16,837 bases of DNA from a virus (lineage: Duplodnaviria > Heunggongvirae > Uroviricota > Caudoviricetes). The position numbers were made by a program, and so were the translations under genes. The notes beneath the pieces were generated by a model. The model made no database searches and had not been told where the DNA came from. It saw only the letters and a list, made by a program, of their open reading frames with translations. The stretch lies in IMG/VR virus record IMGVR_UViG_3300038603_000024, positions 64,001-80,837 of that record; one strand, given 5' to 3'. This document shows positions 2,294 through 16,411 of this stretch, in pieces (position 1 is the stretch's first letter; every line of letters starts with the position of its first letter).

Positions 2294-3244
2294 ATGAGCA
2301 AGGCACTTAAAGGAACAGGCATTTACGCGCTCATCTGTCCTACGACAGGGGCGATTAAATACGTCGGGCAATCCCGTAACATGCGCCGCCGGTATCAACA
2401 GCACTGCACGGCATCGGATGCATCATCGTCTCGACCTCTCGCCCTCTGGCTGGCCGAACTCCGCCTAGACAAGAAGAAGCCCAAAGCCATTGCCCTAGAG
2501 CAGATCACAGACACATCAATCCTAGACTCAGCAGAGAAGGGATGGATTAACGCTCTCTCCCAACGCTTTGAACTCCTCAACATGACAGCAGGTGGCGCAG
2601 GAGCTGTAAAGGGCGAAGGAACAGGCCAATCCGCCCCAGTACGTATGCCAGATGACAGCGACGTAGAGGACGCCATCAAGCGCGCTGTACACAAGGTGAA
2701 GTCCAAGCCAAAGAACCCTGTATTACAGAGGCCAAAGTCTAGTAAGAGAACCGCTCCAACATCTGGGGCAACAGAGCTGCAACTCACTGCAAAACAAGAA
2801 GCTTTTGCCTTTGCCTACGTGGAAACAGGCAACGCATCCGAAGCGTACCGTAGGGCATATGACGTAAGCCCAGACACTAAACCAGAGTCGATTTGGTCGC
2901 TGGCATCACGTCTCCGTACGGACATTGTGGTCGCGTCAAGGATTAAAGAGATCCAGGACGAAATGTCAGAAATGGGCATGATTACGCTCAATTCTATCAC
3001 GAATGACCTAAAACATGCACGAAATTTAGCGGAAGAGCTGGAAAAGCCGGAAACTATGGTCAAAGCAACGACGGAAATCGCGAAGTTGCACGGTTTAACA
3101 GCGGAACGGGTAGAGATTACTGGCCGAAATGGCGGTCCTGTTGAGACAAAACAGACGACTGATGAGAAGGATTTGGCGCGCAAGCTGGCGTTTTTGCTGC
3201 GTCAGGGCGTGAATGCTATTGAGAAGGGCGATGGGGAGGAATAA
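2294..3244 (+). CDS. terS: GIY-YIG endonuclease domain fused to terminase small subunit
   Basis: N-terminus GIYALICPTTGAIKYVGQS..R..QH, later AEKGWI..LLN (GIY-YIG motifs); C-terminal half LTAKQEAFAFAYVETGNASEAYRRAY...VASRIKEI...EIAKLHG...VEITGRNGGPVE typical of TerS. Confidence 0.85.
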   Translation: MSKALKGTGIYALICPTTGAIKYVGQSRNMRRRYQQHCTASDASSSRPLALWLAELRLDKKKPKAIALEQITDTSILDSAEKGWINALSQRFELLNMTAGGAGAVKGEGTGQSAPVRMPDDSDVEDAIKRAVHKVKSKPKNPVLQRPKSSKRTAPTSGATELQLTAKQEAFAFAYVETGNASEAYRRAYDVSPDTKPESIWSLASRLRTDIVVASRIKEIQDEMSEMGMITLNSITNDLKHARNLAEELEKPETMVKATTEIAKLHGLTAERVEITGRNGGPVETKQTTDEKDLARKLAFLLRQGVNAIEKGDGEE

Positions 3245-4164: not shown

Positions 4165-4437
4165 TTAGTTAACGCGTATGGCGTAAACCTCAACAGGGCC
4201 AGGGCCGAAGTGAGGATGCGTGATGGTTGTTTTTCGGTATCCTTCCCAAGGGCGGGTAATGCGCCTGCTAGTGTCGCCCTTTGACGGATATCCTCTGGAT
4301 AATTCAATCTGATCATATTCCCGACCCTCGAGGCGCTTGGCCCAATACGGCGTGGCAAGCCGGTATTCCTCAGCCTTCTCTCCGCTCTTGATCTGGTCGA
4401 AGTAAACGCCTTTTAGTGCTAAGTGCAGCGTCTTCAC
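4165..4437 (-). CDS. ASCH domain protein (PUA-like fold)
   Basis: LHLALKGVYFDQIKSGEKAEEYR contains the ASCH GxKxxExR motif; AAGGAGA RBS; GTGA overlap. Confidence 0.85.
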   Translation of the reverse strand: MKTLHLALKGVYFDQIKSGEKAEEYRLATPYWAKRLEGREYDQIELSRGYPSKGDTSRRITRPWEGYRKTTITHPHFGPGPVEVYAIRVN

Positions 4438-11660: not shown

Positions 11661-12089
11661 TCACTTGCAATACTTCGGCATACGTCCACGGAACTCACCC
11701 ACACGCGCTTGTAGATCCGCATAGAACCCGTCACTGTCGCATCGGTTACACCGCCCGCACAGCCCCTCTGCAATCAGCGCTTTGCCCAGATCCAGCCCGC
11801 TACCCAACTGACACCGACCGACAGCCCTGTCATACGTCCTAGCGCCTGTCAGATCACACGTGACAACCTGACCCTTCACAAGGAAGCGCATGGCCCGTGT
11901 AGCGCGGTCTCCTAGCGCCGTTCCTGTCTCATCGCATGTCAGGCCCTGCAAGCGTACTGCCCGCCCGTTGACCTCGATTGTATCCCCATCGCGCACGTGC
12001 GTAACGGGTCCGGTGATTGTCCCGGCGGTTGCTGCTGTGCCCAAGCCAATGATGATTACGGCTGCTTTGGTTAACGTGTTAAGCATCAT
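11661..12089 (-). CDS. Thermonuclease (SNase) family protein with N-terminal signal peptide
   Basis: HVRDGDTI, VRLQGL..DE and TYDRAVG SNase motifs; TAAGGAGAG RBS before ATG 12089; hydrophobic leader ending AATA. Confidence 0.85.
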   Translation of the reverse strand: MMLNTLTKAAVIIIGLGTAATAGTITGPVTHVRDGDTIEVNGRAVRLQGLTCDETGTALGDRATRAMRFLVKGQVVTCDLTGARTYDRAVGRCQLGSGLDLGKALIAEGLCGRCNRCDSDGFYADLQARVGEFRGRMPKYCK

Positions 12090-12110
12090 CTCTCTCCTTA
12101 ATCTACACTC

Positions 12111-12179: not shown

Positions 12180-12201
12180 GTATTGCAGCGCTGGGCGGTG
12201 G

Positions 12202-12393
12202 TTACTTCTTGTCGCCCCAGTGCCCACGGTTGGGCGATATGCAGGCAATCCATCGCTCACACATAGCAAATGCTTCCTCTGCCGCCTCTAAATCGTGATC
12301 GATCTGCAGGGCCTTGCGTAGGCGATTGAAGTCACGAAGCATGGTTTCAACGCGGGCATTACCGACGAACTCTGATGTATCTTTGTCAGTCAT
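12202..12393 (-). CDS. Hypothetical protein, 63 aa (MTDKDTSEF...)
   Basis: ATGACTGA coupling to the GGQ gene. Confidence 0.7.
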   Translation of the reverse strand: MTDKDTSEFVGNARVETMLRDFNRLRKALQIDHDLEAAEEAFAMCERWIACISPNRGHWGDKK

Positions 12394-12751
12394 TAGTTTC
12401 GCTTTCATTCACCCATTTGCCGTTGCGCTGAACCTCGACAACAGTGCGTTTGGATTTAATCTCTTGCTCAGCATAGTCAGAAGCTTGTGCCAGCCTCCCA
12501 CTTCTTCGAGCCACTTCAATTTTATGCCAAGTTTTAAATCTGTCGCTTTCGGCCATGCGCTGGAATGCGATTTTCTTATTGTCATGTTGGCTGCGTGTAT
12601 CATCTGATACCCCTACGGCCCCGCTGTCCTTATGTGTGCAGCGGACTCCACTGGAAGTCTTATTGCGCTTTTGACCTCCTTTGCCTGATCCTCTGAAATA
12701 GTCAAATCGGCAATCAGCCGAAGTTACGGAAAATAGTAGTTCTTTACTCAC
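12386..12751 (-). CDS. Stand-alone class I release factor catalytic (GGQ) domain protein, peptidyl-tRNA hydrolase-like
   Basis: FRGSGKGGQKRNKTSSGVRCTHKDSG...DTRSQHDNKKIAFQRM matches RF1/RF2/PrfH/ArfB domain 3; GTGA-coupled start. Confidence 0.9.
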   Translation of the reverse strand: MSKELLFSVTSADCRFDYFRGSGKGGQKRNKTSSGVRCTHKDSGAVGVSDDTRSQHDNKKIAFQRMAESDRFKTWHKIEVARRSGRLAQASDYAEQEIKSKRTVVEVQRNGKWVNESETND

Positions 12752-12918
12752 TCTCTTTCTCCCTCTGTCATATCAACGCCATCCTTTAGCATCCTCCGCA
12801 CCTCATCGAGCGCAGCCTTTGCAGCGGCCTCTGCGTAGAGGGATAGCGTGGCGTCTTGATCGTGCACGTCCAAAATGGCGGCTTCAATCTCCAGGTATAG
12901 TCGCTCTAGGGGTGTCAT
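12748..12918 (-). CDS. Hypothetical protein, 56 aa (MTPLERLYLEIE...)
   Basis: TAATG overlap; GGAGG RBS. Confidence 0.7.
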   Translation of the reverse strand: MTPLERLYLEIEAAILDVHDQDATLSLYAEAAAKAALDEVRRMLKDGVDMTEGERE

Positions 12919-13326: not shown

Positions 13327-13524
13327 TCAATTCCCCTCACATAGCGGGACGCCATACTTCGCATTCAACTGCGCCCCTGTTTGTATCCACACATCTCCCA
13401 CAACCATTCTGTGGGCCGCGTTATTCATGTAGTCGTCACCTAGCCCCGGCCAGCGATCATTCAGATCCTGTGCCACCACCTTGTTAGCGGCTACTCTGGT
13501 GCCGGTGCCGGAGTAGCCGCCCAT
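13327..13524 (-). CDS. Small hypothetical ORF, start uncertain (may begin at the internal MNNAAH with an AGGTGA RBS)
   Basis: Stop abuts the next RBS; the ORF-track ATG lies inside a promoter-like repeat with no RBS. Confidence 0.4.
   Translation of the reverse strand: MGGYSGTGTRVAANKVVAQDLNDRWPGLGDDYMNNAAHRMVVGDVWIQTGAQLNAKYGVPLCEGN
13487..13520. repeat. 13-bp inverted repeat with an 8-nt loop
   Basis: GCGGCTACTCTGG-TGCCGGTG-CCGGAGTAGCCGC (12/13 Watson-Crick pairs plus one wobble). Confidence 0.85.
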
Positions 13525-15304: not shown

Positions 15305-15380
15305 TGGACCACCCTCCGGGACTTGAACCCAGATCTGAAGCTTAGGAGGCAACTGCTCTATCCGGTTGAGCTAAGGGTGG
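15305..15380 (-). tRNA. tRNA-Arg, anticodon CCU (reads AGG), encoded CCA
   Basis: 76-nt cloverleaf: acceptor CCACCCT/AGGGTGG, D arm GCTC/GAGC with A20, loop CTCCTAA, T loop TTCAAGT, 3' TCCA. Confidence 0.9.
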
Positions 15381-15478: not shown

Positions 15479-16411
15479 TCAGATGCATTTGGCCTTGTAT
15501 GCGTTAATGGCCTTGGCGTTTAGGCTCTTCGCCACGTCTTTCCATTCTAGCCCCATCCCAGCCAGTTCGTCAGCGCTTTCTTTCTTGACGTCATTGCCGA
15601 ACCACCTTGCGAAGTCACCGATGCGCTTGAAGTCAAATTCACCGTCACAAGCTTCGGATGCCGCTTGTTGGATACGTGCGTCAGTAATGAAGGCATCGCA
15701 GAAGGCCAACACATTGGCAGGGATCTCTACCTTTGCAGTCGCTGCTGCTTTGGTTTTCTTAACCCGGTGAGCCTCACATTTCACCTTGCAAATCATTTTG
15801 GAATAGTCGTCACGACTTGCCCGACGTGGAGATAAGACAAATCCCTCCCCTGGTCCTGAAATATCCCACATCGCCTTAATGTATGGATCTTCCTTGCCAA
15901 TGCTTTCAGCTAGGTCGGACAGCTCCTGTGCTTTGGCCCCAACATCCTTGTCGTCAAAAAGGTTCAGCTCAAACTCTTTCATAATCGGCAGGACTTCAAT
16001 CCCATCGACATTAGGAACCATCTCACTGATAACTTCTGGGTCGCTGCACACTTCACCAGTGCTTAGGTCTTGGATCGCAAAGACAAAAAACATCTTCTTA
16101 GCAATGTTGCTTACTGCGTCACTCTTTTGGACGCCCGGTCCAGCCCACTCTCCGTAAACAGCACAGTTCATCGGGAAGTCGCTTGGGTTCAGAGTGTCCA
16201 CAAAGCCTGCAAAGCCAAAGTTGTCGTCGCCAACCTTAATGATCCGACTGCGAGATTGAGCGTAAAGTCCGCCCTCATCTCGAACAATTGCAGCGTTAGT
16301 CCCGTGCAGTTTGATTTTCGCAATAAAGTTTCGCTCAGTCATTCCGTATCGACGTGCATTCTTCACAAAGTGAGAAAAGCTTTCGACGCTTGGGTACTTA
16401 TGAAATTCCAT
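15479..16411 (-). CDS. rnl2: ATP-dependent RNA ligase, T4 Rnl2 family
   Basis: Motif I KIKLHGTN, Ia QSR, III VYGEW, IIIa FFVFAI, IV EGFVL, V CKVK; C-terminal domain ITDARI...IG...DVKKE. Confidence 0.9.
   Translation of the reverse strand: MEFHKYPSVESFSHFVKNARRYGMTERNFIAKIKLHGTNAAIVRDEGGLYAQSRSRIIKVGDDNFGFAGFVDTLNPSDFPMNCAVYGEWAGPGVQKSDAVSNIAKKMFFVFAIQDLSTGEVCSDPEVISEMVPNVDGIEVLPIMKEFELNLFDDKDVGAKAQELSDLAESIGKEDPYIKAMWDISGPGEGFVLSPRRASRDDYSKMICKVKCEAHRVKKTKAAATAKVEIPANVLAFCDAFITDARIQQAASEACDGEFDFKRIGDFARWFGNDVKKESADELAGMGLEWKDVAKSLNAKAINAYKAKCI

Follow-up and report, generated by a model that had tools for sequence, protein, structure and literature searches.

The window, meaning the whole 16,837-nucleotide stretch of DNA that was analysed, carries on its minus strand an ORF of 121 codons (12386..12751) which begins with GTG, ends with TGA and encodes a stand-alone GGQ release-factor-domain (RF-domain) protein of the PHROG 3122 family, as identified by profile matches, homologs and synonymous bias. 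A Shine-Dalgarno-like sequence, GAGGGAG, lies 7 nt 5' of the GTG (12759..12765, minus strand). The start shares the bases GTGA with the stop of the upstream gene and the stop shares bases with the ATG of the next gene. Pfam RF-1 matched residues 7–86 (E 2.8e-17), with GGQ at residues 25–27, RSQHDNK at 53–59 and a basic patch at 76–86. The first-pass annotation of this DNA had described a GGQ domain with a C-terminal extension and without a codon-reading domain; the ORF and every motif quoted were confirmed, and no N-terminal codon-reading domain was found within the ORF. That this ORF is more than a chance reading frame follows from its 671 close homologs (with at least 150 more distant clusters), from the presence of GGQ in 339 of 350 family rows and from comparison with a related phage contig, where 20 of 21 changed codons were synonymous among the best-supported differences listed. 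The gene is under purifying selection. Scans for promoters and terminators gave no signal above chance level. A perfect 15-pair hairpin lies in an intergenic gap at 13487–13520 of the window and is likely a terminator.

Judged by its genes, the carrier is a tailed phage, with phage markers accompanying the RF gene that include a terminase small subunit (in the window), ThyA, SSB, a primase and a GapR-like gene. The window belongs to a virus record of 27 kb, and an identical protein was also found on a 79-kb contig. Among sequencing runs the best matches were oyster metagenomes, from which this DNA possibly comes; no RNA data set was among the runs listed. The host is probably an alphaproteobacterium, as suggested by the GapR-like DNA-binding gene (PF10073; L323:8059-8313, plus strand), which is located upstream of the window on the same contig. 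Elsewhere in the window, the terminase small subunit (2294–3244, plus strand) was found to have a GIY-YIG nuclease domain fused at its N-terminus, and a 90-aa protein of PHROG 625 (4165–4437, minus strand; unknown function) appears ASCH/PUA-like by eye and has no Pfam match. Two genes downstream of the RF gene lies an ORF for a 141-aa thermonuclease/SNase-like protein of secreted type (11661–12101, minus strand; PHROG 452, E 1e-6).

The stop of the RF gene is overlapped by a 63-aa ORF with no PHROG match (12202..12393, minus strand); both are missing from related phages. In contigs of such phages from three studies the sequences on either side of this region are joined directly, from 12198–12211 to 12763–12790, the individual joints being 12211 to 12764, 12198 to 12763 and 12203 to 12790. 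Given these joins in close relatives, the RF gene and the 63-aa ORF make up an optional cassette. No conserved partner gene was detected when 2,833 neighbouring ORFs from 60 locus groups were clustered, the best candidate being a metallophosphoesterase present in eight groups. The neighbours of family genes vary: in cluster C phages the gene is flanked by DNA polymerase and RecA, in others it lies close to tRNA arrays, and in a close homolog it is adjacent to the terminase.

The gene itself is not a discovery. Positions 19–131 of the PHROG 3122 profile match residues 1–117 of the protein (E 3.2e-31), and the tail alone also matches this profile (E 7.8e-7), as do 77 of 79 family tails. Novelty of the gene was not borne out: it is an ordinary, routine member of a family annotated in hundreds of phages, for which SEA-PHAGES uses the name 'RF-1 (domain) peptide chain release factor' (Colt gp201, ScottMcG gp204, Nanosmite gp140 and EniyanLRS gp129). 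Gp201 of Mycobacterium phage Colt is a full-length homolog (50% identity over 118 residues) with the same tail and in the same clade, and the phage studied here differs from the mycobacteriophage carriers only in its host group (probably alphaproteobacterial) and its smaller genome (~80 kb). The family is almost purely viral, with 79 viral loci against two full-length bacterial-genome matches among those listed, one of them a provirus, and with ESM Atlas clusters that are 89–100% viral; 84 clusters at 50% identity score with E below 1e-30. No full-length member was found on plasmids. None was found as a chromosomal copy in 401 alphaproteobacterial genomes, in which only RF1/RF2-type cores scored (best 72.5 bits). 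The gene has been mentioned in passing beside tRNA arrays (PMC5966550; PMC8092301; PMC9583779), while the literature searched, whose coverage is incomplete, yielded no functional study of the family, and the passages reached by keyword in a release-factor survey (PMC6514570) and a jumbo-phage survey (PMC7824862) do not mention it.

The core of the protein (residues 7–67; 12551..12733, minus strand) is a release-factor domain 3 of RF1/RF2 type which lacks the ArfB alpha-i insert, as established by profile and fold comparison, and it contains the GGQ catalytic motif (12671..12679, minus strand). AlphaFold modelled the full protein with a mean pLDDT of 88 and a pTM of 0.70, as domain 3 followed by helices 70–84 and 86–99 and a hairpin at 106–115. 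Within this model the tail of approximately 54 residues reaches a pLDDT of 84–98, and when modelled alone it reaches 92. Tail helix A (residues 70–84; 12500..12544, minus strand) carries the conserved F72 and W75 together with the basic patch, and the model, covariation and superposition present it as a kinked continuation of helix alpha7. Helix B (residues 86–99; 12455..12496, minus strand) is amphipathic and net acidic according to the model and family charge. In the model and family alignment the protein ends with a terminal strand and beta-hairpin (residues 102–115; 12407..12448, minus strand) bearing the conserved N102 (here R), E106, G111 and W113; some family members stop short of the last strand. 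Conservation in the tail is high, with W75 in 346, F72 in 337, E106 in 332 and W113 in 313 of 350 family rows. The tail is thus predicted to be a folded, conserved family signature of two helices and a hairpin.

The tail had been described as one of mixed charge with a short basic patch. The charge balance stands, since from residue 67 there are 11 K/R and 10 D/E (net +1), with family mean charges of +2.6 for helix A, −1.5 for helix B and neutral for the hairpin; any picture of a loose extension does not, as the tail is conserved and predicted to be folded. Nor was support found for the basic patch as the recruiting element. The patch lies in helix A, which covaries weakly with the core, and among the distal residues those with strong conservation are acidic or aromatic. 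In the covariation analysis the contacts within the core were strong, and helix A was weakly linked (z 2.4–3.6) to the HxxSG turn and the N-terminal strand, its residues covarying with D42, L6 and F7; such a link is what would be expected if helix A continues helix alpha7. Searches with the tail against Pfam, PDB sequences, Foldseek, VIA-align (best Z 3.5) and the ESM Atlas gave no clear match, a result which does not demonstrate a new fold. No longer or fused proteins carrying the tail were found, which is a weak negative.

To place the protein among known release factors, a tree was constructed from 67 core columns, with MTRFR itself left out. This tree placed the family, including its mycobacteriophage members, in one clade (support 100/98, and 93/96 in a second sample), and grouped ArfB with alpha-i-less ArfB (99/93) separately from the phage family. 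By NCBIfam score the protein also falls outside ArfB, PrfH, RF1 and RF2, and the family is a separate, almost purely viral clade. A chromosomal group appears as sister to the phage family; its proteins derive mostly from PVC bacteria and end in a 100-residue tail unlike that of the phages, although this group was retrieved with the query's own motif and the pairing may be biased. Its members (L083–L160; e.g. L178:1453-1971, plus strand) are stand-alone GGQ proteins, mostly of Planctomycetota and Lentisphaeria and also of Myxococcota, which share the GGQKRNKT motif with the phage family and have a C-terminal domain of approximately 100 residues that is near-neutral and without a Pfam match, and which score below all NCBIfam cut-offs. 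The searched passages of release-factor surveys do not mention this chromosomal family.

Identity with RF1 or RF2 was rejected on NCBIfam scores far under the cut-offs. Domain 3 is alike (~45% identity over 60 residues, with a fold alike up to the switch loop), but the phage protein has no domains 1, 2 and 4 and no PxT or SPF motif. A split release factor was likewise rejected, as PCRF was found in none of 40 carrier contigs, nine of which are at least 90% complete. PrfH (TIGR03072), which has a near-neutral C-terminus and a role in recovery from attacks on translation, gave the best NCBIfam score for the domain (63.2 bits, over residues 9–78 only, against a cut-off of 166.65). The protein is nevertheless not PrfH, which has a recognition domain derived from domains 2/4 and an RtcB2 partner, both lacking here; there is no RtcB among the called genes near the RF locus.

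ArfB/YaeJ and ICT1 (NF006718) are likewise stand-alone GGQ domains with a C-terminal extension and no domains 1, 2 and 4; their tail is basic and disordered, whereas that of the phage family is neutral and predicted to be folded. The protein scored 29.8 against the NF006718 cut-off of 100, and its alignment to the ArfB profile shows a gap of ~24 residues where the alpha-i insert would lie between the last two strands, while alignment to the alpha-i-less profile is ungapped. The median net charge of the tail is −1 in the phage family, +13 in ArfB and +11 in alpha-i-less ArfB, that of the last 30 residues is −2 against +9 for ArfB and the best 20-residue window 3 against 9; the tails have no profile similarity. 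ArfB identity was rejected on these grounds together with the separate clade, which agrees with the first-pass annotation in that the tail is non-canonical and the protein is not nested within ArfB. It follows that recruitment must differ from that of ArfB. The same minimal design is seen in mtRF-R (C12orf65/MTRFR) and the 'classical' alpha-i-less bacterial ArfB, stand-alone proteins with an RF1/RF2-like domain 3 and a helical extension, but these have strongly basic tails (+6 to +15 in 12 examples from the phylum Desulfobacterota) and cluster with ArfB and not with the phage family. The alpha-i-less stand-alone GGQ proteins with basic tails at L303–L315 come from the phylum of a Desulfobacula genome, and the sole one scanned (L303, also numbered L174) scored 53.6 against the NCBIfam ArfB cut-off of 100; given this score, genes of this kind have probably been missed in ArfB surveys.

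An analogue of ArfB that acts on non-stop ribosomes, with helix B and the hairpin sensing the empty mRNA channel through hydrophobic or shape contacts, was also considered. It would suit the stand-alone GGQ domain, a tail similar in length (58 against 47 residues), the tmRNA found in some carriers and an AU test that did not reject a clade of the family with ArfB (p 0.36). ArfB depends on basic residues in its tail (PMC3950681; PMC8012679), however, and every characterised channel sensor (ArfB, SmpB, ArfA and the CgPrfH tail) is basic (PMC3950681; PMC8012679; 10.1101/2025.01.09.632186), so with the tail charge and ArfB score given above such an analogue is quite improbable.

Residues 4–97 of the model superimpose on ribosome-bound RF2 (5u9f, residues 228–318) with 89 aligned residues, an rmsd of 3.4 and Z 7.4, and a second ribosome-bound RF2 structure (4v67) gave 87 aligned residues, an rmsd of 3.1 and Z 7.5. 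The angle of the arm formed by the tail should be read with the pTM of 0.70 in mind, as the model may echo release-factor training structures and a Z of 7–8 is middling. The RF2 segment matched by the model stops directly before Trp319 of the switch loop. The terminal hairpin fits release-factor domain 4 poorly, with an rmsd of ~9 in full-length alignments. That the tail is a degenerate domain 4 was hinted at by spacing and one HMM run-on, and found no support in anchored shuffle tests or in profile alignment; no domain-4 sequence signal was detected in the majority tail (family −0.8 bits, against +7.5 bits for the PrfH positive control), and fold searches with the tail alone gave no clear match to domain 4. 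In three family members the distal tail is replaced, directly behind helix A, by domain-4 sequence of RF2 or RF1 type, namely in P0222 (L317:2142-2624; E 5e-22 against an RF2 tail profile), P0235 (E 0.006) and P0272 (L320:312-809; by inspection). All three are without domains 1 and 2. As the three lie at separate places inside the family tree, their domain-4 sequences look like later grafts, and they give a weak hint that the distal tail may occupy the place of domain 4.

The model was also found to match mtRF-R bound to the split large subunit (7a5h; residues 4–80, Z 6.2, rmsd 3.4), which raises the main rival to the reading preferred below: peptide release from split 50S-peptidyl-tRNA, either unaided or together with an S4-domain protein of the host (Hsp15/RqcP), in which the arm would contact H69, the P-site tRNA or the cofactor. 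Such a factor would share the minimal alpha-i-less architecture and would not need a tail for the mRNA channel, and the bacterial factor that acts on Hsp15-50S complexes is described as unknown (PMC9757039). The mtRF-R tail is nonetheless basic and homologous to that of ArfB/ICT1 (PMC3472500) whereas the phage tail is neutral, 70S-bound release factors align over a longer stretch than mtRF-R does, and no S4-domain or other conserved partner recurs in the 60 locus groups. Release from split subunits is considered improbable.

GGQ and its flanking catalytic-domain residues are nearly invariant over 350 rows with identities down to ~32%, and all of the activity that we infer for the protein is drawn from such conserved motifs only. 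It is very probably a GGQ-dependent peptidyl-tRNA hydrolase which acts on the ribosome. In eight of the 350 members GGQ is replaced by GGS or GGT (P0154, P0155, P0172, P0192, P0194, P0201, P0242 and P0246), four of which have the loop GGSGKDTS in common. These members, and the short, divergent sequences of other phage RF-domain families (PHROG 20323), would accord with a non-catalytic or weakly catalytic A-site binder, a decoy whose role would be to block or adjust termination, rescue or tRNA-targeting defence in the host, or to titrate PrmC. Against this, 97% of rows retain the glutamine, alongside N30, R37, R53, Q55 and N58 across a very long divergence, and a decoy is highly improbable.

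tRNA genes were found in 35 of 40 carrier contigs and in 18 of 40 contigs of control phages chosen by a single gene, ThyA (Fisher p 1e-4, uncorrected for relatedness and lifestyle). The median number of tRNAs per contig was 11 in carriers and 0 in controls, with ten or more in 21 and 5 contigs, respectively, and a tRNA lay within 6 kb of 22 of 55 carrier loci and 2 of 53 control loci. About half of the family loci are no closer to a tRNA than the contig average (18 above and 17 below it), and the phage studied has one tRNA in 27 kb. This tRNA-Arg(CCT) (15305..15380, minus strand) lies 2.6 kb upstream of the RF gene on the same strand and is regarded as context and not as an obligate partner. 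Beside it is an Rnl2-like RNA ligase gene (15479–16411, minus strand; PHROG 548, PF09414) which is not linked to the RF family across phages. A repair module of ligase and GGQ protein was rejected because RNA ligases are not enriched in carriers (Rnl2 in 9 of 40 carrier and 6 of 40 control contigs, RtcB in 4 and 2) and because in relatives the RF gene is lost independently of its flanks. tmRNA scored over its cut-off in four of 40 carrier contigs and one of 40 controls; Pth2, scanned in the carriers, did so in one of 40. PADLOC returned no match. Host tRNA cleavage as an anti-phage defence, and phage countermeasures to it, are established (PMC7824862; PMC12409363), and the tRNA enrichment in carriers fits the earlier proposal of rescue after host tRNA loss or cleavage.

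The earlier proposal that the factor strips ribosomes from host mRNAs fared less well. This, or termination at stop codons during a shortage or inhibition of host RF1/RF2, would agree with the reading of the mycobacteriophage gene as one of translational reprogramming (PMC8092301) and with a TGA at the codon for the invariant Trp75 in one viral locus (L322:6451-6603, minus strand). That locus has a second stop 11 codons on, however, and no element was found that tells host from phage mRNA or that reads codons. All three stop codons are in use in carriers, no suppressor tRNA turned up in the vicinity of the gene and temperate prophages carry the family gene too, so a role in takeover or back-up termination is very improbable.

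The reading preferred here, to which a probability of roughly 40% is given, is that of a codon-independent, arm-docked peptidyl-tRNA hydrolase that acts on 70S ribosomes whose A site has long been vacant, with the mRNA channel either filled or empty. It is based on a tail without the basic helices of a channel sensor, a predicted arm along the release-factor path and the link with tRNAs. The GGQ loop would enter the peptidyl-transferase centre as in RF1/RF2, and the two tail helices would make up a rigid arm that follows the course of the extended helix alpha7 in ribosome-bound release factors. This arm would bring the hairpin at its end, with E106 and W113, close to the decoding centre and H69, the site of the switch loop and domain 4 in release factors. 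For A sites left vacant for long, the factor would be in kinetic competition with incoming tRNA, and during infection it may free ribosomes that have stalled with nothing in the A site, for instance when host tRNAs are depleted or cut. With no basic helix for the mRNA channel, truncated mRNA would not be needed, unlike for ArfB, ArfA and SmpB. An intact domain 3 with GGQ, the lack of PCRF, a conserved non-basic tail, the tRNA-rich carriers and the optional nature of the gene in relatives are counted in favour. Counted against it are the GGS/GGT members, the uncorrected tRNA enrichment, the single tRNA in the phage studied and the poor hairpin fit; in addition, an unguarded hydrolase would risk cutting phage proteins, and no selectivity element was identified.

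The bacterial rescue factors characterised so far need a truncated mRNA (tmRNA, ArfA and ArfB), damaged 16S rRNA (PrfH) or a split subunit (RqcH). If the proposal is true, a small phage protein that frees peptides from 50S-peptidyl-tRNA, or from ribosomes stalled while their mRNA is intact, would close a known gap. It is rather unlikely that the family represents a separate rescue-factor class, a single GGQ protein with a folded arm at the decoding centre for ribosomes stalled mid-way on intact mRNA (at hungry or cut-tRNA codons) that needs neither mRNA cleavage nor ribosome splitting nor rRNA damage and that phages use generally against tRNA-targeting defences. Compared with the characterised rescue factors, the family is a variant with its own tail and possibly a new kind of stalled-ribosome recognition. 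The 'RF-1' label hides this distinct tail and its putative mechanism; the name implies RF1 function in proteins with no codon-reading domain. The presence of this large family in tractable mycobacteriophages makes the proposal cheap to test and, if true, it would add a protein-level counter-defence to what is known of phages and tRNA.
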